Source: a virus
Reading direction: 5' to 3' (one strand)
DNA: 41,644 nt
Virus record (IMG/VR): IMGVR_UViG_3300011432_000014
Numbering within the stretch: position 1 is the first letter of the stretch; the number at the start of each line of letters is the position of its first letter. This document shows, in pieces, positions 2,568 to 41,644 of this stretch. A program made the position numbers and the translations under genes. The notes below the pieces were generated by a model. The model had not been told where the DNA came from. It worked only from the letters and a program-made list of their open reading frames with translations, and ran no database searches.

Positions 2568-2747
2568 TTAATACAGGTAGTTCATTAAGAGCTCATACAT
2601 TACATCTCTATCAATATTTTCAATCTCCTCATCGGTCATTTCTTTTCCGTCATATTCAGCGCTAACTATATAGGCGTCGCAATAGTCTGGTGCATCCTTA
2701 TGGTCGATGCCCTCGAAAACTACGTCTGAAAATAATTTAATTTGCAT
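2568..2747 (-). CDS. Small acidic hypothetical protein (start refined to ATG at 2747)
   Basis: MQIKLFSDVVFEGIDHKDAPDY...; the longer track ORF would overlap the helicase 3' end by 134 nt; the ATG at 2747 overlaps the helicase stop by 11 nt. Confidence 0.6.
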   Translation of the reverse strand: MQIKLFSDVVFEGIDHKDAPDYCDAYIVSAEYDGKEMTDEEIENIDRDVMYELLMNYLY

Positions 2748-4341
2748 ATTCGAGTTTTTTGGTGTTTTTAAACTCGTAGTACTTATCGAAGTTATATTTT
2801 GCCAACTCCCTATGCCAGTACTTATCGAAATATCTTTCAGGAAATGCTTGCTTGAACCACTTCTCAACAAATGAAAAGTAAATGTCGAATAGCTGATTCT
2901 TCTTTGTAGGTGTCATTTCCATTGACTCCTCAGCCCTATCAATCATCTTGATTGCGGCTTCGAAAAATGCTTGATAACTTCCACGCTTTATATTGTTCAA
3001 CAATTTTTCAAGTTCGGGGTCGTCTGTAACAGTAACCCATTCGAGAAGTATCTGCTGTTCTTCGTAAGCTTTACGATTAAAAATATGACCGCACTCTTCA
3101 CCTGTTTCTGGAAGTACAATGTCACACCTCATCTTTGCAGCATGTATAAAGCAACCACACGAAGGACATTCTTTCATAGGAGCTACTCCGTCCTTTGGTA
3201 TTTCAGGATTATTGAAAATCCAATGCCAGTCCCTCTCTTCGCACCAGTCACCGTGAGTAATGCAATTGCCGCCCATATCTATAATCTGAAACCTTGATTT
3301 CGGCTTCAAATCATAAGGGTAACGATATTGGTTCTCATTGCACCACTCTTGGTCACATGGTCTGCTACCTCTACCGCACATCTGCAACCAGAGTGCCATT
3401 GAAGTAGTAGCTCTATTAATTATAACTGTTTCTATTGTTGGCTCATCAAATCCAAGAGTCGCAATCCCAACATTACAAAGTACAGCATTAGGCGTATCGT
3501 GAAACCATTTAAAGATTTCCCTGCGCTCGTTTTCTGGAGTTGTTCCGTCAACGTGCCTACATGGTATATCAAATAACTCGAAATTATCTTTAACAGCAAT
3601 ACTGTGCTCAATGTTTACATTGAAGACGATTGCTTTTTTACCTCTTGAAAACTTTTTGTATGCAAGATAGGTGCTCATTACATATTTCGTTCTCATGAAC
3701 TCTTCAGCCATTGATGAAATATCGTAATCACCAGTTGAGGCAATTGCAAGCTTCGCTTTGTCAATTACGTCCTTCGGTGAACGAGTAATGTTCTGTGCAA
3801 GATTGCCGTACTTAATTAACGTCTTGATACTTGGGCCAGTAGACAAAACAGAATAATACTTATTCATCGGTTCTCTCTTTGAACTCGATATTGGAGTCGC
3901 TGTGAAACCAATGATGTACTCTTTAGTAAATTGTCTGTGTAATTTATTGAAGCTCGCATTGTGCGCCTCATCAATAATTACTAATCCGATGTTCATGTCT
4001 TCAGCAACTACTTGGTCGAAACGTTTGCTTACGGACTCAACCATGCCAATGTAAGCTGGTGCAAAGTCAACCCATTTCGTACCTGCCTTGATAAGACTCA
4101 TTGTCTCACCAAAGATGTTTTCCATTGTTGCTTTTGTCTGATACATCAGCTCTTCCCGATGTACGAGAATCAATGTCTTCTTTCCTGTTTTGTGATAGTA
4201 ACGATGTGCAAGTTTACTGAACATTACGGTCTTGCCGCCGCCTGTAGGTAATTGTGCTAATACATTTTTGTACTTACCAAGACTGCGGATAATATCCTCA
4301 ATCTGGTCTTCCTGATACTGTCTGTCTCTAATTTGATGCAT
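2737..4341 (-). CDS. Superfamily-2 DEAH-box DNA helicase with C-terminal Cys-cluster
   Basis: Walker A AQLPTGGGKT, motif II VIIDEAHNAS, motif III GFTATP, Cys cluster CPSCGC...EECGH. Confidence 0.85.
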   Translation of the reverse strand: MHQIRDRQYQEDQIEDIIRSLGKYKNVLAQLPTGGGKTVMFSKLAHRYYHKTGKKTLILVHREELMYQTKATMENIFGETMSLIKAGTKWVDFAPAYIGMVESVSKRFDQVVAEDMNIGLVIIDEAHNASFNKLHRQFTKEYIIGFTATPISSSKREPMNKYYSVLSTGPSIKTLIKYGNLAQNITRSPKDVIDKAKLAIASTGDYDISSMAEEFMRTKYVMSTYLAYKKFSRGKKAIVFNVNIEHSIAVKDNFELFDIPCRHVDGTTPENERREIFKWFHDTPNAVLCNVGIATLGFDEPTIETVIINRATTSMALWLQMCGRGSRPCDQEWCNENQYRYPYDLKPKSRFQIIDMGGNCITHGDWCEERDWHWIFNNPEIPKDGVAPMKECPSCGCFIHAAKMRCDIVLPETGEECGHIFNRKAYEEQQILLEWVTVTDDPELEKLLNNIKRGSYQAFFEAAIKMIDRAEESMEMTPTKKNQLFDIYFSFVEKWFKQAFPERYFDKYWHRELAKYNFDKYYEFKNTKKLEYAN

Positions 4342-4361
4342 AAATAACTCAATTTATGTGT

Positions 4362-4637
4362 TTAGAATAATGATGACTGGTTTGTGTTGCCGCCTGAATT
4401 TTTTCCTTTGTGGCTGGCGACTGTTTTTCTTTTCTTTTCTTTTTCCACAAAGATTAAAAGTCCTATGTCGTCCATCTCCGCTACTTGTTCTGGTCTTGTT
4501 ATGAACAGCTCGTTTGTTCTCAAATTACGATAAACTGAAAACTCATCATCGTGTTTCTTAACGAATTCCAGTTTATCGTGCTTTACGGCATATACTCTCG
4601 AAAATCCAATATCTTCGAGTGCTACGAGTACTTTCAT
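4362..4637 (-). CDS. Hypothetical protein
   Basis: 91-aa ORF; ATGA overlap with the upstream gene (4634-4637). Confidence 0.65.
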   Translation of the reverse strand: MKVLVALEDIGFSRVYAVKHDKLEFVKKHDDEFSVYRNLRTNELFITRPEQVAEMDDIGLLIFVEKEKKRKTVASHKGKNSGGNTNQSSLF

Positions 4638-4863: not shown

Positions 4864-4901
4864 GTTAACGTGGTGTTAACGATATGTTAAACAAATGTTA
4901 A
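4864..4901. promoter_or_regulatory. Four GTTAA cores at exact 11-bp phasing
   Basis: GTTAA starts at 4864, 4875, 4886 and 4897, between the methyltransferase stop and the next gene start. Confidence 0.6.
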
Positions 4902-5595: not shown

Positions 5596-5900
5596 AAGTT
5601 TTAAAAATAATATCCAGTTGTAGACACAACCGGACTTTTCGAAAAACAAACATAACCTTGAGTAAAAACAAAAGGATATATATATCAGCAATAACAATAT
5701 TTTAAAAATGAGTCCTTACAAGTAGAAACTTCAGGACTGTACTATAAACCATCATAAACAATGACAAACATAGCAATATTTTTAAAGAGTCCATAAATGT
5801 AGACACATCAGGACTGACCTTTCATAAACAATAAACAAGAGACAAAACAAAGCAATATTTTAAAAAACCTCCAGATGTAGAAACAACAGAGGGATATGTC
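5596..5900 (-). repeat. Four tandem ~80-98-nt units, each a hairpin with conserved apex GT(G/T)TCTAC followed by TTTTTAAAATATTGC
   Basis: Hairpins at 5613-5634, 5711-5738, 5788-5815 and 5868-5893; lower stems differ but stay paired. Confidence 0.8.
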
Positions 5901-5913
5901 ACAAACCATCGCA

Positions 5914-6201
5914 CTAATAAGCGATTTCAAATTCAAAAGGTTGAACTAAATTTGGTTTATTCATAATCAAAATAAGGCTATCTATAAATTTAATAACGTG
6001 TTCTGGTAACGGATAAAATATTTGTGGAATACTATAATTGTTCCAATCAACTTTAACTGTATCTACTCCTACCATACATTCAAACCCTGTCACTCTTTTC
6101 ATTGCAATTGCAACTGGACAAGAAAACGCAATAATAGCATTTCTATTATTCATTAAATTTAACGATGTACTTATATCTTCTTGAGTTACCTGTATTTTCA
6201 T
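5914..6201 (-). CDS. Small conserved hypothetical protein, paralog of 40323..40604
   Basis: MKIQVTQEDI...CPVAIAMKRVTGFEC...PFEFEIAY aligns with MKIQVTQGII...CPIAVAVRAETGFDC...PFEFEL. Confidence 0.75.
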   Translation of the reverse strand: MKIQVTQEDISTSLNLMNNRNAIIAFSCPVAIAMKRVTGFECMVGVDTVKVDWNNYSIPQIFYPLPEHVIKFIDSLILIMNKPNLVQPFEFEIAY

Positions 6202-11311: not shown

Positions 11312-11575
11312 TTATTTTTCTTTTTGTGGTAAATAAAAAGTTCTTATATTGTGGTCAACTATCTGCTCAACCAATTTAGCAAACTTGCTCCATTTGATAT
11401 TTTTGTTTACGTCCTCGAGACTCACGTTATTGATAACTATATCATATACAGGCGAACCACCTACAAAAGTTACAACTGTTGCCTTGACATTAATATACAA
11501 ATTAGTTTTTTTGCCATCTTTTGTGCAAGTCGAAGGCACGTTTATTAAAGATTCAAATGTGTGATGCTGTCTCAT
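11312..11575 (-). CDS. Hypothetical protein
   Basis: 87-aa ORF; its last codons (LPQKEK) form a perfect plus-strand copy of the conserved motif. Confidence 0.6.
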   Translation of the reverse strand: MRQHHTFESLINVPSTCTKDGKKTNLYINVKATVVTFVGGSPVYDIVINNVSLEDVNKNIKWSKFAKLVEQIVDHNIRTFYLPQKEK

Positions 11576-13082: not shown

Positions 13083-13130
13083 GTTAATGTTAAAAAAATG
13101 TTAACGAAACGTTTTTAACATCCATTTAAC
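13083..13130. promoter_or_regulatory. GTTAA/TTAAC core cluster upstream of the 13050 cassette
   Basis: GTTAA at 13083, 13089 and 13100; TTAAC at 13101, 13115 and 13126 (two 11-bp steps). Confidence 0.5.
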
Positions 13131-13386: not shown

Positions 13387-13659
13387 TCATTTTTTAAGAA
13401 TGAACAAAGTTGTTACACCAACGACAAAAATTGCAGCAACGGCTAACCAATGTCCTCTGATAATAGGCGGCGGTGATTCCAGTTTCGAGTACGCTTTTTT
13501 ATACCGCACCGTATCTCTATGAGAACTATCACCACTTGCTCGTACACTTACGCTGTCAATAGTTGTAAGTGTCCGTTCATTCTCAAATATAGTTTTACAA
13601 GAAACAGCCAAAGCAGCCATTCCCACAAAAAGAAAAACTACCATTAATTTTTTCATCAC
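13387..13659 (-). CDS. Candidate unimolecular spanin (N-terminal lipoprotein-like signal plus C-terminal TM anchor)
   Basis: MMKKLMVVFLFVGMAALAVSC (signal with Cys21) and C-terminal WLAVAAIFVVGVTTLFILKK. Confidence 0.5.
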   Translation of the reverse strand: MMKKLMVVFLFVGMAALAVSCKTIFENERTLTTIDSVSVRASGDSSHRDTVRYKKAYSKLESPPPIIRGHWLAVAAIFVVGVTTLFILKK

Positions 13660-21174: not shown

Positions 21175-21188
21175 TTAGTTTGATTTTA

Positions 21189-21205
21189 CCACAAAAAGAA
21201 AAATG
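21189..21205 (-). promoter_or_regulatory. Conserved element CATTTTTCTTTTTGTGGTAAA, 14 nt upstream of the 21174 start
   Basis: Plus strand CCACAAAAAGAAAAATG. Confidence 0.55.
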
Positions 21206-25104: not shown

Positions 25105-25580
25105 TCGTAGAACAATTGATTTATTACTTGTTGAATATCTGGAGCAATTTCATTTTGATATAAATATTGCTCAGATTCATAGCTTAAATTTATTATAGCA
25201 TCGCCACTTCTTTCTTTAATTAGCCAAATTAAAGTATTATTACTTTTAACTTCGAAATCATCATCTCCATTAAATTGCACATAAAGAGAATTGTAAAACT
25301 GTCCACTCATATAGTTTGTGATATGGTCTGTAATAGAACCAATACCTTGACCAAACACATCTTTTCTCCATAAAGTATATCGAGCATAATTATATGTCTT
25401 TTGTCCACGCCTCGTTAAATATACTCGTTCATCGTTTCCATCAAAACCTTTTGCAAGTTGAGATTGCACCATTTTAACAATCTCTTTTTCCTCTAACTTC
25501 AACTCAACCTCTACAACCTCTGGTATTTGAGGTGTGAAATTCATTAATTTCTTTATCAATTTTTCAAGACCGAACAACAT
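25101..25580 (-). CDS. Putative tail assembly / tail-associated protein
   Basis: 159-aa ORF between the major tail and chaperone genes; ATGA overlap at 25101-25104. Confidence 0.45.
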   Translation of the reverse strand: MLFGLEKLIKKLMNFTPQIPEVVEVELKLEEKEIVKMVQSQLAKGFDGNDERVYLTRRGQKTYNYARYTLWRKDVFGQGIGSITDHITNYMSGQFYNSLYVQFNGDDDFEVKSNNTLIWLIKERSGDAIINLSYESEQYLYQNEIAPDIQQVINQLFYE

Positions 25581-25592
25581 ATCTTAAAATTT

Positions 25593-25624
25593 AAAAAAGA
25601 GCGCACCGCATTTAAGATGCGCTC
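25593..25624 (-). terminator. Intrinsic terminator/attenuator after the major tail gene
   Basis: Minus strand GAGCGCA-TCTTAAATGCGG-TGCGCTC-TTTTTT. Confidence 0.75.
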
Positions 25625-25656
25625 CCCAAAAATCAAAAATGGACAAATGCAAAGAA

Positions 25657-26586
25657 TCAAGGCGTTGTTACTGTAACTGGAGAAATAGCAATTCCGTAAA
25701 TATCATCAGCAGCCATATCTGCAGGTGTTGCACCAGATACCGTATATGCAGTTGCAGCAGTAAACGCACCAGCAAGTTCAATGGTAGTTCCAAGAACAGC
25801 AGCAGTTACAGGAACATCTGCACCAGTCGCAGCATTAATAACTGTAAAACCATCTGCCATTGCAACTAAATCAGCACCAAACTCAGCAGTTGCATCATCT
25901 CCGCAACAAGCATCTACTAAACCGACAATCAATTCGGATGTAGTATGAGGTCCAACATCAGTAAGTTCAAGGTCAATCAAACCTGTCAAGTCGAGCAACG
26001 GTTTAGCATCTTGCAAAAGAACCGCATTATCTACAAAATAATCAGGCATGTAACCTAATTGGAAATAAGACTTAGCTGGATTTTTCAAATCTGCCATGTC
26101 AATAGCTGGAGCAAACAAAGACGCTTTAAGACCGCCAAAAGTTCCGTCATGGTTGTCTTTGCATACAAGGTTTCCCTTAATGTCAACTTCCAATACTCTC
26201 ATATCTGCATTATTGAAACTCTTTAAAACTTTGGCAAAACAAAGTCCACCATCAGTAGTAGAGAATAACTTTGCGTATTGAGAATAACTAACGAAAATAA
26301 TAGTACCATCGTCAAGCGTAACAGTGTTATCTGTTCCCTTTGTATTAACCAATCCGTTTATAGGAATCTGGTTTCCGAACAAAGGGTAAATCTTATCGGG
26401 GGCATCTGCATGTACCCAATCTGTAAAAGCGGAAAGTATATCTGGATTATTTAAGTCGGCAAGCGTAAACTTGAACTTCTTATCCACGATAAACAACATT
26501 GCTGTTGCCGCAGGAAACAGATTAGAACCAGTGCCTGTGTTTTTAAGTTGTGAGCTTGTTTTACAAGCTCTTATTACAGCACTCAT
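25657..26586 (-). CDS. Major tail protein with C-terminal A/T/V-rich Ig-like extension (start refined to MSAVIRA at 26586)
   Basis: Lies between the connector genes and the chaperones/tape measure, followed by a terminator; C-terminus ...TAAVLGTTIELAGAFTAATAYTVSGATPADM. Confidence 0.65.
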   Translation of the reverse strand: MSAVIRACKTSSQLKNTGTGSNLFPAATAMLFIVDKKFKFTLADLNNPDILSAFTDWVHADAPDKIYPLFGNQIPINGLVNTKGTDNTVTLDDGTIIFVSYSQYAKLFSTTDGGLCFAKVLKSFNNADMRVLEVDIKGNLVCKDNHDGTFGGLKASLFAPAIDMADLKNPAKSYFQLGYMPDYFVDNAVLLQDAKPLLDLTGLIDLELTDVGPHTTSELIVGLVDACCGDDATAEFGADLVAMADGFTVINAATGADVPVTAAVLGTTIELAGAFTAATAYTVSGATPADMAADDIYGIAISPVTVTTP

Positions 26587-26588
26587 AT

Positions 26589-27104
26589 CTAACAATATTT
26601 TGTTGAGTTAATTAAAAATTGTACGTTATCTAAGTTAATGCAATCCACGAAGTCGTTCATACCAGATATAGGAACTGTACCAAGAACATCTACCTTAGTG
26701 TGAATAATTGTATTCGGGTCTTTAGAACTCATGTGGTCGTCCTTTGCAAAATTTCTAAGAAAGCTTTCGTAAACAGGATATAGTATTGTCTTGAAAACGT
26801 TTTGATAACGAGCCATAGGTTCATTGTCAGGATTAGTCAGCGCAGCAATCGTAATTCTACGAATATTGCAATCTGCATAAAGACCTGTTACGCCACGCCT
26901 CTCAACAAACGGCATGTACAAAGCAATGAGTACATACTTGCTGCCTTTCAGCGTTACGCTATTGTCTTTATCTTTCAAGTTTTGAAGGATATTGATAGCA
27001 TCTCCATAAGCATAATTTATTTCAATACCAAGTTCAAGTGCCGTATTTGCAACGATACTCCCTATAATATCTACTACGAAAACGCTATCTTCTTTCTTAG
27101 CCAT
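26589..27104 (-). CDS. Head-tail joining / tail terminator-like protein
   Basis: 171-aa ORF immediately upstream of the major tail gene; preceded by the conserved element. Confidence 0.45.
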   Translation of the reverse strand: MAKKEDSVFVVDIIGSIVANTALELGIEINYAYGDAINILQNLKDKDNSVTLKGSKYVLIALYMPFVERRGVTGLYADCNIRRITIAALTNPDNEPMARYQNVFKTILYPVYESFLRNFAKDDHMSSKDPNTIIHTKVDVLGTVPISGMNDFVDCINLDNVQFLINSTKYC

Positions 27105-27117
27105 CTTTTTTGTTTTT

Positions 27118-27134
27118 CCACAAAAAGAAAAATG
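27118..27134 (-). promoter_or_regulatory. Conserved element CATTTTTCTTTTTGTGGAAAA, 13 nt upstream of the 27104 ATG
   Basis: Plus strand CCACAAAAAGAAAAATG. Confidence 0.55.
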
Positions 27135-31760: not shown

Positions 31761-31774
31761 TTATTTGGTTTTTT

Positions 31775-31791
31775 CCACAAAAGAAAAAATG
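31775..31791 (-). promoter_or_regulatory. Conserved element CCATTTTTTCTTTTGTGGAAAA, 14 nt upstream of the portal ATG
   Basis: Plus strand CCACAAAAGAAAAAATG. Confidence 0.55.
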
Positions 31792-32324: not shown

Positions 32325-32341
32325 CTTAGCGAAGTTTTATT

Positions 32342-32358
32342 CCACAAAAGAAAAAATG
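32342..32358 (-). promoter_or_regulatory. Conserved element CCATTTTTTCTTTTGTGGAATAAA, 17 nt upstream of the 32324 ATG
   Basis: Plus strand CCACAAAAGAAAAAATG. Confidence 0.55.
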
Positions 32359-33552: not shown

Positions 33553-33719
33553 CGTGTTCGAGATTTATCTCGGACGCTGGTACAATATACGCCGAGTTTA
33601 TGAAACGACCAAATTTATTTATCCACAGGTTAATAGATTATGGAACGAGGTGTAGGGAGGGGAAAATAGGCATGCCTAAAAAATTTTTTTTTCCTAACTT
33701 TTTCTTAACAAAACATTAA

Positions 33720-33750
33720 GGAAAAATTAACAGGTTTTTACACCTGTTAA
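33720..33750 (-). terminator. Intrinsic terminator after the 245-aa gene (perfect 9-bp inverted repeat built from TTAAC cores)
   Basis: Minus strand TTAACAGGT-GTAAAA-ACCTGTTAA-TTTTTC. Confidence 0.7.
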
Positions 33751-33775
33751 TTTTCTGTTAAGAAATGTGGTTTAA

Positions 33776-34513
33776 CTATTCGCTAACAATTTGATAACTG
33801 TTATCCGCCTGTTTTTTGAACTTGTGGTCAGAAATTACCGTGCGTGCAGTTCCGTTAAGTTTTTGTGAATTTCCTTCAGTTGGGTATTTTTCCAACAACT
33901 GGTCGTAGGTCATACCTGCTACCAGGTCATCCCAAATTTCTGCACGTTTTGAGCCCGCTTTTTCTGGGTTGCCATTTAACGAAACCTTAACTTCGCCGTT
34001 TGACTTTGGCACGCTTTTTGACAGGTCTTTTCCAGTTTGGCCAGCTTTTGCGAAAACAACTGGTTTGCCAAACAATGTGTTAAAACTGGATTTTAACGAA
34101 TCCTTAACATCCTTTGATGCCTCGACCAATTTGTCAATTAACTCAAGATTAACACCGAATTTTTCCGCAATGTCGTAACGTGCCAAGTTGGCAGTGTCAT
34201 CCGCCTGACGCTGCAATTTTGACAGCTCAACGGTCTTTGCAAATTGTGCCAGTTTGTCACTCGCAATTTTTACTGCTTCTGCCGTTTTGGCAGTCTCTTC
34301 TGTCAGTTCGTCGTCGCTCGCCTCGTTTGCCGCACGGTCTGCCTTTTTGGCATCTTTTAACGATTGTTTCAAACCTGCCAAAATGTCCTCATTTTGTTTG
34401 TCTTCCAGTTCCCTTGCCGCCAGAATGGCAGTCATAAATTCGGGAACAACTGTTAAAGTTTCGTTAATTACTTGCTCGTTATTTGCCTGAGCTGGGACTG
34501 TTAAAGTTTCCAT
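33776..34513 (-). CDS. Orphan 245-aa helical K/E/A-rich protein of unknown function
   Basis: Stand-alone ORF with its own TAnnTTTG promoter and terminator; GC visibly higher than the flanks; N-terminal ETLTV duplication. Confidence 0.7.
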   Translation of the reverse strand: METLTVPAQANNEQVINETLTVVPEFMTAILAARELEDKQNEDILAGLKQSLKDAKKADRAANEASDDELTEETAKTAEAVKIASDKLAQFAKTVELSKLQRQADDTANLARYDIAEKFGVNLELIDKLVEASKDVKDSLKSSFNTLFGKPVVFAKAGQTGKDLSKSVPKSNGEVKVSLNGNPEKAGSKRAEIWDDLVAGMTYDQLLEKYPTEGNSQKLNGTARTVISDHKFKKQADNSYQIVSE

Positions 34514-34535
34514 AATTGATTTTTTTAAATTTGAA

Positions 34536-34547
34536 CCACAAAGATAA
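34536..34547 (-). promoter_or_regulatory. Canonical Bacteroidota-type promoter: -7 box TATCTTTG, with TTTG 20 nt upstream
   Basis: Minus strand AAATTTG-GTGGGTAATGAACCAGCCCT-TATCTTTGTGG, 22 nt before the ATG at 34513. Confidence 0.6.
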
Positions 34548-34590
34548 GGGCTGGTTCATTACCCACCAAATTTCAATTGTTAAATTTTTG

Positions 34591-34755
34591 TTAATAGATA
34601 TTTGACGATAAAACTACAAATTCACGTTTCTTTAACATTTCACGATTTTTCCTTTTAGTCATTGAAATGTAATTTTTAACTTTTCTATAGGCAATTGGCA
34701 ATAACAGAACATATACAAAAATTCCTAATATTGCAATGATAAAAACTTGATACAT
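34591..34755 (-). CDS. Small membrane protein (54 aa, below the track cutoff)
   Basis: Hand translation MYQVFIIAILGIFVYVLLLPIAYRKVKNYISMTKRKNREMLKKREFVVLSSNIY: one TM helix plus a basic tail. Confidence 0.45.
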   Translation of the reverse strand: MYQVFIIAILGIFVYVLLLPIAYRKVKNYISMTKRKNREMLKKREFVVLSSNIY

Positions 34756-34868
34756 CTTGATTTTTTTTAATAAGTTAATAATATGTTAAGGTGTTCACCT
34801 GGTGACGTTTTAACTTTTTTATTTCAAAGAACTCCGGTAGGCAACCCTACCATACCAACCCCTTAACA

Positions 34869-34880
34869 CCACAAAGATAA
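34869..34880 (-). promoter_or_regulatory. Second copy of TTATCTTTGTGG (-7 box TATCTTTG)
   Basis: 12-mer CCACAAAGATAA identical to 34536-34547; ~110 nt upstream of the 54-aa ORF. Confidence 0.45.
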
Positions 34881-36074
34881 CACGTAATATGTTAACAAAA
34901 ACACAAAGGATAGGCTTTAACAAACCTTTAACTTTTGGCCCAAAACCCATATTTATATAATGAAACATGTATCCGCACGAGTATAAGGAATTTCAACGAA
35001 TAAAAAAATTAAAAAACCCTTAAGAACGAAACGTTAACATTCCTTTAACATTCCCGTCTTTTTGGGCAATTTTTGGAATTTTTGAAACCGTTGTAACTCG
35101 CTGATAATCAATACTTTACACATATAAAAAATACCAAATCTCCCCAAATTTGCCCTCAAATGATGTGTCTGGTATGATTGCGCCAGAATGGGGGTTGAAT
35201 GCCGTAATGGGGCGCAAAACGACCTTTTTGGGGCATGACTAAATAGCCGGTAATTTTGGCAGGATTAAGATTTGATTAAAATTCCAGATTTATTTGGAAG
35301 TTACAATACCAAATTTCGGTAGTTAATATTATGTTAAAGTCCAGCCGTCCGGTGACGCAAGCCATTAACAAACCTTTAACATAAATCTTTGTTAAATTCC
35401 AGTTTTCTGGTCTATGCCAACTTTCTGGCACGATTTTTGCTGTTAACAAGCTTTAACAAATTCTTAACATTTATTTTTTGGAATTCTCAAAATTTTTTCG
35501 TACCTTTGGGTTACCTTCTTGATTTTGGCGTTAACTTTTCCTTAACAATTACAAACTAAATTTTTCAGCATTTTTTAACAGTTTCTTAACTTAAAAAACG
35601 ATTAAAAAATTCCTACTTAACATAATATCATTTATAGGAAAAATGCCACATTTGCATGTATAACTCATTGAATTTCAATCAGTTACCTACTTAACATAAT
35701 ATATTACATACGGCAGATTAATTATACATTAAAATTTAGATTTTAACTTTTCCTTAACTCCATATTAACAAAAAATTTCGTACCTTTCCTATAAAATCAT
35801 TTTTTCGACCTTAACTAAAATTTAACAATGCCAAACTGACTTTGGCACGGTTTTTGAGCGAGTTAAATTTTAGTTAATTCCTGCCGTTCCCGTTCTGGGA
35901 ATTTTTCCCAACTTGGGAATGAGTCCCACTTTAGGAAAACTAACACTTGTTCGTATACGAAATTTTTCTTAGTACGAAGTGTCTCGTACGTGAGAATTCG
36001 TTTTCAAGATAATTTTAAAAATAAAAAACTAAAATATTTTCAGATGCTCTGTCAGACTTGCTCTCTGAGGCTTT

Positions 36075-36091
36075 CCACAAAAAGAAAAATG
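36075..36091 (-). promoter_or_regulatory. Orphan copy of the conserved element CATTTTTCTTTTTGTGGAAAG, with no ORF downstream
   Basis: Plus strand CCACAAAAAGAAAAATG, 30 nt after the terS stop; faces the non-coding block. Confidence 0.5.
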
Positions 36092-36120
36092 CCAGAAGGC
36101 GATTTCCTAAAAGGCGATTC

Positions 36121-36588
36121 CTATTTTTCGAACTCCGAGTGCGAGAGCTTTGGAGTCGTGTCGTCCCTTATTACTTCGATATTAATTGTAGCCTGAGCAT
36201 TGCTACCACTGTCATTGTTATTCAAGTCCAGTTTACGTATAGCCATATTTGCGTTAAATATTCCTACCATGCTGTACTCAAAATTCTGCGCATATATTAC
36301 TTGCAGTATCTTTTGCGCAACTAAATAGTAGTCCCCTGCATCCCGATTTCTGGCTATATCCTGAATGTACTGAGAGGTAATGCCACAGTGTAAGCACAGC
36401 GCCGGCAGGTTGAAAGGACGAGGGAACTGTGTGTCTACTTTCTCCCCAGTCTGCCTGATTACCTCCGTCTTGTATATCGGATTAGCCTCGCACCACATAA
36501 AGTAATCTTTAGCGTCATTCCATAAATCCTCTGGCTTGCTGCCGGAAGACTTAGCCTTAACCATCCAGTGATTAATAGTGTTATCCAT
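36121..36588 (-). CDS. terS: Terminase small subunit-like protein
   Basis: RPFNLPALCLHCGITSQYIQDIARN...YYLVAQKILQVIYAQNFEYSMVGIFNANMAIRKLDL matches the HTH plus oligomerisation pattern of small terminases, from memory. Confidence 0.55.
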   Translation of the reverse strand: MDNTINHWMVKAKSSGSKPEDLWNDAKDYFMWCEANPIYKTEVIRQTGEKVDTQFPRPFNLPALCLHCGITSQYIQDIARNRDAGDYYLVAQKILQVIYAQNFEYSMVGIFNANMAIRKLDLNNNDSGSNAQATINIEVIRDDTTPKLSHSEFEK

Positions 36589-37150: not shown

Positions 37151-37527
37151 TTGATTTTCAATACGTTGCATAATTTACCACAACTTACAGACGTTACAAC
37201 CGAGAGGGCATTGATAATCAATACGTTGAATGCAACTCATAGAGGTTGCAACGTCAAACACGTTTGTAGGGATATATATATATATATAAATAATGATAAT
37301 AGATAGTTAAAAAACATATATTAGAATATTATATATGTAGTAAGTCGAGCTATAGTAAAATGAGTCATTTTGTATGGGCTGCCATATACTGATTATTGTT
37401 ACAACCCATAAGAGTTATATTCAAATCATTGAGTATCAATACGTTATAAATGCTAACCAAAAAATTTCAACCCATAACAAGATAAACCCTCGTCGCAACC
37501 CATAACCAATTGATAATCAATACGTTG
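37151..37527 (+). promoter_or_regulatory. Iteron region: four direct copies of TTGAnnnTCAATACGTT(G/A), three copies of CAACCCATAA and an AT-rich core; candidate origin or operator
   Basis: Iterons at 37151-37168, 37211-37228, 37429-37446 and 37510-37527; CAACCCATAA at 37402, 37468 and 37496; palindrome GTTGCAAC at 37245. Confidence 0.65.
37272..37288. repeat. (TA)8 microsatellite inside the iteron region
   Basis: ATATATATATATATATA read directly. Confidence 0.9.
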
Positions 37528-37566
37528 AATCAAGTTAAGTGAAATGTTAAAATTCATCCAGTGTCC

Positions 37567-39244: not shown

Positions 39245-39461
39245 TTTTGATTTTTGTGGTTAAATATAGAAATACTTCATAAAGATTTTCTGCTGAATAT
39301 GCGTAACGAGTAGGTAGATGAAGAATTATCTCGTAGCCATCGTACCTGTAGAAGTCGTTCATCTCTAAAAACCGAACAAACCTTCTTTTTCTTCTTGTGG
39401 AAATCGGCAGCTTCAAGTACTTATACTCGAAGTTGCCGTCCTGATTTTGATTGTTTCTCAT
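39204..39461 (-). CDS. Hypothetical protein
   Basis: 85-aa ORF. Confidence 0.5.
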   Translation of the reverse strand: MRNNQNQDGNFEYKYLKLPISTRRKRRFVRFLEMNDFYRYDGYEIILHLPTRYAYSAENLYEVFLYLTTKIKNGSYEFQDNRSRR

Positions 39462-40240: not shown

Positions 40241-40322
40241 TTTGTTATTTGTTTTGTAAAACAAATATAAATAAGATAAATGAGAGTAAAACATAACAAA
40301 TGTTAAACAAATGTTAATGTTT

Positions 40323-40604
40323 TCACAGCTCAAACTCGAATGGCTTAGGTATATCTCCAGAGATTGTTAGGTCTGGATTAAGACACGCATCAAAATCATT
40401 CTTGAATTTTTCAGCTATTTCCGGCAGGTCGTATCGTTTATACGAGTAATGATTGAGAACAGTTACCCTGCCGCCAACAACGCAGTCAAAACCAGTTTCA
40501 GCTCTTACAGCTACCGCAATCGGACAGTTTTTGCAATAAGACTCACCTGCTCGTATCAATGCGAGTGACTCGTTAATTATTCCTTGTGTTACTTGTATTT
40601 TCAT
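40323..40604 (-). CDS. Small conserved hypothetical protein, paralog of 5914..6201
   Basis: MKIQVTQGIINESL...CPIAVAVRAETGFDC...PKPFEFEL. Confidence 0.75.
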   Translation of the reverse strand: MKIQVTQGIINESLALIRAGESYCKNCPIAVAVRAETGFDCVVGGRVTVLNHYSYKRYDLPEIAEKFKNDFDACLNPDLTISGDIPKPFEFEL

Positions 40605-41374: not shown

Positions 41375-41567
41375 CGCCTTGTTTTTTAAGTTTAAAGATT
41401 GCTATTGGCTCAAATCCTTCTTTCTTGTGCCAATCGAGCATACCCTGATTACAATAGACATTGTCTATTACTCGTACGCCTGTATGAGTCCAATTGAATA
41501 CAAGAAGCACTACTGATTCAGAAGGTTGAAAACCTCTGTTGTCTACTTTAGTTTCCATTGTTTCCAA
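41355..41567 (-). CDS. Hypothetical protein
   Basis: 70-aa ORF; its 5' end lies in the terminal repeat (41567 = position 46). Confidence 0.55.
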   Translation of the reverse strand: METMETKVDNRGFQPSESVVLLVFNWTHTGVRVIDNVYCNQGMLDWHKKEGFEPIAIFKLKKQGDEQKDN

Positions 41568-41644
41568 ATTTTACTTGTTCATAATATCCTTGCTTTTCTG
41601 CAAGTTCAATAATAGAGTTTGCGATCATGAAAGCGTGAGGGAAA
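41522..41644. repeat. Terminal direct repeat, right copy
   Basis: Identical to bases 1-123. Confidence 0.95.

Follow-up and report, generated by a model that had tools for sequence, protein, structure and literature searches.

Phased TTAAC repeats between the terminase genes of a phage genome resemble binding sites for a host PhoB-type response regulator

Genomic context of the terS-terL block

The DNA analysed here (the window) is the whole of IMG/VR virus record IMGVR_UViG_3300011432_000014, 41,644 nucleotides long, and our subject is a block at positions 34514-36120 of it, lying between the small and large terminase genes (terS and terL), that is almost free of open reading frames (ORFs) and crowded with short TTAAC repeats. 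The two ends of the window, positions 1-123 and 41522-41644, are identical over 123 bp, so the record corresponds to a circularised complete assembly of about 41.5 kb. All of its genes lie on the minus strand. In the order of transcription, a set of small early-type ORFs with an HNH gene is followed by a VRR-NUC-like gene, terS and the block, then by a 54-aa ORF, a 245-aa orphan gene, terL, and the portal, protease, capsid and tail genes, and lastly by recombination and replication genes, which include a P4-alpha-like primase-helicase and end with the helicase and primase-helicase. An earlier note on this DNA had placed the block between terS and terL, and both gene identities were confirmed. 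The shortness of terL had raised the suspicion of a split gene or an intron, which we rejected on finding a Walker A motif and a full ATPase-nuclease in its 369-aa ORF.

The closest cultured relatives of the TerL protein belong to phages of Bacteroides, Parabacteroides and Flavobacterium, at about 35% identity, and the promoter-like sites of the window fit TTTG / TAnnTTTG, which is the promoter pattern of Bacteroidota. Taken together, these two features point to a host that is likely a member of the Bacteroidota.

No ORF of 60 aa or more is present in the block. On six public contigs from other samples that are 99.9-100% identical to the window over this region, gene callers made a single call, the 54-aa ORF, in agreement with the earlier note's view that this was the only plausible coding sequence there. 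The same near-identity ruled out the idea that the block is hypervariable.

Abundance and phasing of the TTAAC cores

The block contains 25 matches to TTAAC and 13 to GTTAA, and since four GTTAAC palindromes are scored twice, the number of distinct cores is 34, exactly the figure that had been estimated by hand. Their density, expressed as TTAAC per kb, is 15.6 inside the block versus 2.0 in the remainder of the window. When the block was shuffled with its dinucleotide composition preserved, the number of cores was 9.2 +/- 3.1 with a maximum of 20, against the 34 observed. Phasing is more extreme still: 13 same-strand pairs of cores are spaced at exactly 11 bp, where the shuffles gave 0.02 and the random placement of an equal number of cores gave 0.45. 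Over the whole window, TTAACN6TTAAC occurs 26 times versus an expectation of 0.26. Core number and 11-bp pairing are therefore far above the shuffled background that the earlier note had proposed as a check, and its count of at least 12 doublets or triplets is borne out, as are its example coordinates and its longer repeats, every one of which, including a 13-mer at 35102-35114, is present as listed. The block has a GC content of 31%, and its cores occur in both orientations.

Repeat saturation is real within 34514-36120, but the boundaries first drawn around it were too narrow. The core-rich domain runs from 33690 to 35880, holds 55 cores, and takes in the 245-aa ORF as well as the intergenic region upstream of terL. 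Within these 2.2 kb there are 18 doublets or triplets, 13 in the block and five in the 245-aa gene and its flank. Further doublets lie beyond the domain, at 4864-4901, 6761, 13089/13115 and 40302; the doublet motif is genome-wide and not exclusive to the terS-terL block.

Conservation of the block among related phages

Relatives of the window were collected from IMG/VR, metagenome and Logan contigs (L001, L002, L007, L010, L016, L017 and L025, with TerL 74-83% or TerS 63-79% identical). They retain a gap, 1.45-1.6 kb long, that separates terS from the homologue of the orphan gene (255-277 aa), and the only ORFs in that gap are one or two small transmembrane (TM) peptide ORFs adjoining the orphan-gene homologue in L001, L002 and L007, analogous to the 54-aa ORF of the window; L025 has none. 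The ORF-free state is kept in L001, L002, L007, L010 and L025. While the flanking genes of these relatives are 66-76% identical at the DNA level, the gap itself can be aligned in islands only. In the comparison of the window with L025, its closest divergent relative, the cores are 87% identical, the 6-nt spacers 56% and the whole block 59%. Such conservation of cores over spacers is, as read from these alignments, the mark of selection on protein contact points. The suggestion in the earlier note that phased short repeats are cooperative protein-binding sites fits well with this apparent purifying selection on the cores and not the spacers, and with a geometry expected of tandem winged-helix binders.

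The part of the domain that is coding offers a second view of the same selection. The doublets within the 245-aa ORF encode V-K/N-x-x-L-K/N and are retained in the window, L007 and L025. L002 writes the shared DVKDTLK motif in synonymous codons that destroy the doublet, and L001 has no doublet there. Because L002 has the same amino acids without the doublet, selection acts on the DNA motif independently of the protein.

Ordinary ORFs occupy the terS-terL interval in more distant relatives (L003, L004, L008 and L009). This observation favours the possibility that the block is decayed coding sequence, or a neutral spacer that has drifted into cryptically simple sequence, as do the true microsatellites, (GCCA)n and (CAAT)n, of L002. 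If the block were decayed coding sequence, residual translated similarity would be expected, and tblastx of the block against the terS-terL intervals of the four distant relatives returned nothing below E = 0.1. As the gap is kept and no tblastx trace of ORFs is found, the block is a conserved, fast-evolving non-coding feature and not a set of decayed genes. The retained ORF-free state, the 99.9-100% identity in six public contigs and the strict geometry of doublets to promoters described below all speak against decay or drift, and the conservation of cores without their spacers largely refutes it; we consider this explanation very improbable.

In each related lineage, much of the gap and part of the orphan gene are also taken up by words of its own. 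Those of L001 and L010 are AGCT-type, with individual 5-mers in L001 reaching 28-33 copies; in L001 (L001:1385-3733) the AGCT-type words GCTTAAGC and GAGCT also invade its 276-aa ORF, and this relative carries TTAAG-N6-TTAAG as well. CCAGCC words accompany the microsatellites in L002:3252-4790, the 14-bp palindrome AACTAACGTTAGTT recurs about ten times in L007:3483-4100, mostly with one or two mismatches, and in L017:800-2965 GCTAA-N6-GCTAA replaces the GTTAA doublets. Such lineage-specific words may be arrays for other factors. Restriction-site decoys and Chi-like sites were considered and rejected: AGCT and CTAG are enriched in some relatives in no coherent pattern, and the words occur on both strands, unlike Chi.

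A different phage contig (L026:1-1500), whose fetched stretch encodes no TerS, no TerL and no homologue of the 245-aa protein, has a non-coding region of at least 1.3 kb with the conserved GAAATTTGGGGAAATTTGG island, GTTAA doublets, a CG-alternating element, and a hairpin followed by GAAGTTCTTT. This was the only further related locus found for the conserved island as a DNA pattern, and its likeness to the block means that parts of the block may travel as a module.

Promoter geometry and a link to phosphate genes

In the window and its relatives together, the distance from the end of a doublet to a TAnnTTT[G/C] -7 box is 11, 22 or 32 nt in 14 of 18 cases, so that the doublets mostly lie in helical phase with promoters. 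In the 32-nt cases, a canonical AAATTTGG -33 element is found 8 nt after the doublet, and in the 11-nt cases the doublet occupies the place of the -33 element. Outside the core-rich domain, the helicase-primase operon is preceded by four cores (4864-4901) and the recombination and replication module by a doublet (13089-13104).

One genome per bacterial species was scanned for the pattern TTAACA-N5-TTAACA-N5-TTAACA, and Bacteroidota or Ignavibacteriota made up about one third of the matches listed. For about 20 loci of these two phyla, we annotated the genes downstream of or flanking the triplet. One triplet lies upstream of a PHO4 phosphate transporter (E = 8e-90) followed by Porin_O_P (E = 9e-33) (L089:754-3556), another upstream of an operon in which a gene with no assigned function is followed by PstS and PstC (L104:4285-7508), and a third upstream of an OprP-like porin (L113:501-1895). 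TonB-dependent receptors (L058 and L060) and an OmpR-family regulator (L052) were found at other loci. Three phosphate-specific operons among about 20 loci is far above any background. At the bacterial phosphate promoters the last perfect repeat ends 21 or 32 nt before TAnnTTTG, and the geometry in the phage agrees to within 1 nt.

On this basis, phased TTAACA repeats are a candidate Pho box of the Bacteroidota/Ignavibacteriota group, from which the phage doublets are indistinguishable as sequences. The candidate consensus is three to four TTAACA at 11-bp spacing, ending 21 or 32 nt before the -7 box, or about 10 nt before it when a fourth, degenerate repeat is included. No Bacteroidota Pho-box consensus was found in the searchable literature.

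What would be expected of OmpR/PhoB-type sites is largely what we find. The cores of 5-7 bp form direct repeats at 10-11 bp; they match the motif at phosphate genes of the likely host clade, in a small sample of loci; and they hold a fixed helical phase to a core promoter, in about 7 of 26 phage doublets. We therefore regard it as likely that the TTAAC cores are half-sites of tandem, head-to-tail sites for a winged-helix regulator of the OmpR/PhoB family. That the binder is the phosphorylated PhoB of a Bacteroidota host is, in our judgement, evenly balanced, and the reading as a whole, in which the block is a non-coding island of host PhoB boxes with promoters in both orientations and two-way terminators, is put forward tentatively and at slightly lower confidence. 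A host factor is the simplest binder because no Trans_reg_C domain was found in the window ORFs tested and because the 245-aa protein does not track the doublets among relatives.

Comparison with described regulatory sites

The earlier note recognised no described class of element with this organisation, which was too strong a statement, for the unit matches the architecture of Pho, ArcA and CtrA boxes. The unusual aspect is how many units are crowded into a block without ORFs; no repeat block between terS and terL was found described in the searchable literature.

Among the promoters that host PhoB is known to bind in cyanophage S-PM2d is the one for the phage DNA polymerase; the Pho box of cyanobacteria reads PyTTAAPyPy(T/A) (PMC10976474). 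The Pho boxes of S-PM2d and P-SSM2 share with the window's doublets the direct repeats, the TTAA(C/T) core and the 11-bp period. They likewise place a host response regulator on phage promoters, including those of replication genes (PMC10976474), as is predicted here for the doublets before the helicase-primase and recombination operons. The cyanophages have single sites per gene, whereas the window has 18 doublets in 2.2 kb, in both orientations and many of them promoter-less, and the host clade here is Bacteroidota, with PhoB binding predicted from sequence alone.

In E. coli, the phosphorylated ArcA (ArcA-P) site consists of ATGTTAAAAA / TGTTA repeats at 11-bp spacing, two to five per site; the minimal site is two TGTTA(A) at 11 bp, and a site has up to five repeats in all, at 11- or 22-bp steps (PMC4173790). 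GTTAA-N6-GTTAA fits this description. ArcA is, however, a gammaproteobacterial regulator with two to five repeats and not dozens, whereas the host here is likely from the Bacteroidota and the motif is linked to phosphate genes.

CtrA, also of the OmpR family, recognises TTAA-N7-TTAAC, within which TTAAC-N6-TTAAC falls, and the TTAACA repeats of Bacillus PhoP are nearly the same. Five CtrA sites silence the Caulobacter origin, and CtrA boxes are also found in alphaproteobacterial phages. CtrA is not known outside the Alphaproteobacteria, whereas the promoters and TerL relatives of the window point to Bacteroidota, and no origin features were found in the block. The stoperators of cluster A mycobacteriophages are a further parallel in that they are many short asymmetric sites that vary between related phages and act both as operators and as promoter-less roadblocks. 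They are single sites of 13-14 bp that are spread genome-wide in one orientation and are bound by the phage's own repressor, unlike the phased doublets concentrated here in one island.

Several observations weigh against PhoB as the binder, or against promoter control as the role of the sites. An in-phase -7 box, allowing at most one mismatch, is found for only about 7 of the 26 doublets, the remainder having no evident promoter; within the block alone the figure is about 5 of 13, the others having none, and the doublets inside the 245-aa ORF have no evident promoter either. The phosphate link draws on about six bacterial loci, and no experimentally defined Bacteroidota PhoB box was found in the searchable literature. 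Since ArcA, CtrA and Bacillus PhoP share nearly the same repeat, the motif does not settle the identity of the regulator, and a phage-encoded binder with no Pfam match is possible. L001 and L002, both close relatives, retain the gap but have just three to four doublets, and the lineage-specific words that fill it instead are not accounted for by PhoB. Lastly, the authors of the S-PM2d study warn that Pho-box prediction for phage genomes from sequence only is unreliable (PMC10976474).

Alternative roles for the block

A protein of the phage itself, either the 245-aa coiled-coil protein or an unannotated early protein, could coat the 2.2-kb domain, which would then serve as a pac site or packaging enhancer, or in the condensing or bridging of DNA. 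The position of the block beside terS and upstream of terL suits this explanation, as does the run of doublets through the 245-aa gene, preserved by codon choice; a doublet at that gene's own promoter would permit autoregulation. In the AlphaFold model of the 245-aa protein (pLDDT 71), a coiled-coil hairpin is joined by a disordered linker to a small alpha/beta domain at the C-terminus that, as modelled, could bind DNA. However, the model has no significant fold match in the PDB and the protein no sequence match to any DNA-binding fold. The C-terminal domain is conserved (52-71%) in L001 and L002, which are almost without doublets, and L008 and L026 carry doublets but have no homologue of the protein. 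The 245-aa protein was rejected as the binder on these grounds. TerS, proposed in the earlier note as the binder of a pac array, fares no better: it is 63-77% identical among relatives, with an N-terminal region that is nearly invariant, even though the words of their blocks differ widely. A pac or cos site would be private to the packaging region, and doublets also occur at 4.9, 6.8, 13.1 and 40.3 kb, including at promoters 20-30 kb from the terminase genes. We consider it unlikely that the repeats are an array for a phage protein.

The block's AT-richness and its phased repeats in both orientations also brought to mind a replication origin, a copy-control region or a centromere-like iteron site, perhaps gated by a response regulator as by CtrA at the Caulobacter origin. 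Repeats that flank and enter a gene recall the ori/inc layout of P1 and F, the phage has a P4-alpha-like primase-helicase, and one copy of the 13-mer GTATTGATTATCA from the iteron region at 37 kb lies in the block, just downstream of the promoter-like part of its most conserved island. The phased 11-bp repeats, cooperative binding and promoter overlap of plasmid R1 parC, the site of ParR, are similar as well. Yet parC consists of ten contiguous iterons in about 160 bp beside parM and parR, whereas the cores here are scattered over 2.2 kb in both orientations, and they are 5-6 bp long, unlike the 17-22-bp iterons of head-to-tail arrays. No DnaA box lies in the block, no partition NTPase or other member of the ParA, ParM, TubZ or Rep families was found in the ORFs tested, and the cumulative GC skew has no turning point. 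Neither contiguous iterons nor, among the ORFs tested, an initiator or partition gene was found with the AT-rich sequence, and the earlier note's proposal of an origin or centromere is not upheld; we rate it as quite unlikely. A more conventional origin-like site lies at 37222-37566, a second non-coding region where the near-palindrome GTATTGATTATCAAT occurs three times, twice with one mismatch, beside a (TA)n run. By its sequence this region looks like an origin or cos site, and its 13-mer is the one that recurs in the block.

A third proposal was a locus for non-coding RNAs (ncRNAs), in which a late transcript from an orphan late motif would be joined by short sense and antisense RNAs between hairpins, the repeats being promoters or RNA motifs. 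This would be compatible with an island of PhoB boxes. The 20-nt late motif CATTTTTCTTTTTGTGGAAA is real: it has eight copies in the window versus 0.05 expected, is 100% conserved in relatives and is probably a late promoter or leader element, four of the eight copies lying 10-14 nt before start codons of structural genes. Its orphan copy keeps its position just after terS in L001, L002, L007 and L025. Terminator-like hairpins are present, and promoter-terminator pairs outline candidate RNAs some 55-340 nt long. Good folding is seen for the segment 35820-36068 (z = -4.07), but its opposite strand folds equally well (z = -4.42), which attributes the signal to DNA palindromes, and the remaining candidate RNAs reach z of only about -2. 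Searches for tRNAs and of Rfam found no match, the latter giving nothing at gathering level and only chance-level matches at E up to 10. Sequence conservation is poor outside the cores, which resemble protein sites, and these are found in either orientation and also within coding sequence. While the motif and hairpins stand, an RNA locus as the explanation of the block seems to us rather unlikely.

A similar island in Felix O1-like coliphages

When viral contigs were scanned for the TTAACA triplet, Felix O1-like coliphages (Felixounavirus) were among the matches. Between convergent gene sets, each has 1.66-1.8 kb without ORFs. This block contains 36-38 TGTTA cores, the motif of the ArcA-P direct repeat of E. 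coli, and 14-15 same-strand pairs at 11 bp versus no pairs in the flanks; CTTAAAAG and CTATAAAG are among its other private words. The only annotation it carries is 'repeat_region'; the Felix O1 genome paper is silent on it, and no explanation was found in the searchable literature. The differences are considerable: this is a myovirus of Enterobacteria with proteins unrelated to those of the window, its block is not between terminase genes, and the matching host regulator would, by analogy, be ArcA and not PhoB. The parallel means that such repeats need not indicate PhoB. It also suggests, from the motifs, a wider class of phage islands loaded with sites for host response regulators.

A possible mechanism and its implications

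If the doublets are PhoB boxes, a phosphate-short host, or the drain on phosphate from phage DNA synthesis, would cause phosphorylated PhoB (PhoB~P) to load cooperatively onto them. Any promoter whose -7 box follows the end of a doublet by 11, 22 or 32 nt would be switched by PhoB~P, and the switched promoters would be that of the 245-aa gene, the outward-facing ones of the block, and those of the helicase-primase and recombination operons. The many sites that lack a promoter would form a sink or a roadblock, and could titrate PhoB~P or gate transcription on its way into the packaging and head genes. Since each genome has 26 doublets and a cell contains many genome copies, such titration is plausible in physical terms, though speculative. 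A sponge or checkpoint function of the island is possible, though we would sooner expect it to be wrong. Somewhat more doubtful is the generalisation that some phages carry ORF-free response-regulator islands, of PhoB-type TTAACA here and ArcA-type TGTTA in Felix O1-like coliphages. Once genome copies multiply, such an island could serve as a sponge or checkpoint that reads or blunts the host's starvation or redox signal, and it would act as a gate to packaging and late expression.

In cyanophages, a few single sites are known through which host PhoB controls phage genes. If the present interpretation is true, Bacteroidota phages wire core functions, namely their replication operons and the way into the packaging module, to the phosphate sensor of the host, and 4% of a phage genome is given over to an ORF-free array of sites, which would suggest titration or a roadblock and not simple promoter control. 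The same design, of the ArcA type, may then exist in the well-studied, culturable coliphages of the Felix O1 group, which are an easy experimental system for the island idea, directly testable in E. coli.

Features of the block and neighbouring genes

The features of the domain and its surroundings are collected in Table 1. The promoter module at 35443-35508 is of the Bacteroidota type, faces terS and away from terL, and is conserved in L002, L007 and L025. The most conserved island resembles a sense-strand promoter, and the element at 35811-35877 looks like a two-way terminator, T-runs following its palindrome on both strands; the core is conserved in L010, L016 and L017.

Table 1. Positions of features in the window and of the comparable blocks in Felix O1-like coliphages
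Feature	Position	Strand	Remarks
terS, P22 gp3-type small terminase	36121-36588	-	
Orphan copy of late motif CATTTTTCTTTTTGTGGAAA	36072-36091	-	no ORF after it
Palindrome-rich segment: cgtacgag.., ttcgtatacgaa, ttcccaagttgggaa, ttcccagaacgggaa	35880-36060		folds alike on either strand
Two doublets forming a perfect 16-nt inverted repeat around palindrome TGCCAAA-N5-TTTGGCA (35829-35847)	35811-35877	both	
Core triplet 35743, 35754, 35765, then 11 nt, then -7-like box TACCTTTC (35781-35788)	35743-35788	+	faces terS
Doublet TTAACAGTTTCTTAAC	35575-35590	+	
Doublet TTAACTTTTCCTTAAC	35531-35546	+	conserved in L025
Cores 35443, 35453, 35464, then 8 nt, then promoter-like TTTG-N20-TACCTTTG (35477-35508)	35443-35508	+	
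Terminator-like hairpin TGCCAACTTTCTGGCA + T-run	35415-35440	+	3' half mimics sigma-54 consensus TGGCACGATTTTTGC
Doublet TTAACAAACCTTTAAC	35365-35380	+	
Doublet TTAACATAATATTAAC, then CCGAAATTTGG	35322-35337	-	identical in L025
Most conserved island, GAAATTTGGGGAGATTTGGT(n)TTTT..TATATGTGTAA	35089-35157	-	conserved in L002, L007, L025, L026
Doublet TTAACATTCCTTTAAC	35034-35049	+	conserved in L025
Doublet TTAACAAACCTTTAAC	34917-34932	+	position and cores conserved in L025
Terminator-like hairpin GGTAGGGTTGCCTACC, then GAGTTCTTTG	34835-34852	-	conserved in L025, L026
Doublet TTAACATATTATTAAC	34774-34789	-	18 nt upstream of 54-aa ORF ATG; conserved in L025
54-aa ORF	34591-34755	-	N-terminal hydrophobic helix, basic tail; called by gene finders
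Doublet 34579-34594, 8 nt, promoter-like TTTG-N20-TATCTTTG (34570..34539)	34539-34594	-	predicted to drive 245-aa gene
GTTAAC palindromes	34891/2, 35033/4, 35442/3, 35530/1		each scored as TTAAC and GTTAA
245-aa orphan gene	33776-34513	-	four doublets inside
Terminator-like hairpin after 245-aa gene	33722-33755	-	overlaps doublet 33746-33761
terL, 369 aa	32443-33552	-	complete, Walker A present
Other late motif copies	32339-32358, 31772-31791, 27115-27134, 21186-21205, 13620-13639	-	
Other late motif copies	11313-11332, 39384-39403	+	
Felix O1-like blocks	L192:1437-3120; L233:8949-10755; L275 (MN850605, phage fjerdesal, about 25150-26807 of that record) 2740-4397		

Sigma-54-like sequences (TGGCACG-N4-TTGC/A) occur on the plus strand at 35426-35440, 35843-35857 and 34007-34021, one of them a perfect match. 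Sigma-54 promoters were rejected, as the perfect TGGCACGATTTTTGC at 35426 is the 3' half of a hairpin with its T-run and is not conserved in relatives, and the hairpins read as terminators in both directions. From their sequence context, these sites are most likely the 3' arms of TGCCA..TGGCA hairpins followed by T-runs, i.e., terminators.

One perfect DnaA box, TTATCCACA (33619-33627), lies in the intergenic stretch upstream of terL. Two small paralogous proteins are encoded on the minus strand at 5914-6201 and 40323-40604 (phrog_19191; both start MKIQVTQ), and the doublet at 40302-40317 lies directly downstream of the second. They have no Pfam domain, and the helix-turn-helix (HTH) likeness ascribed to them earlier was not seen, no HTH being detected in either. 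The non-coding gap between a methyltransferase gene and a 95-aa gene contains, at 5691-5889, a tandem repeat with a unit of about 79 bp that is imperfect (76% identity).

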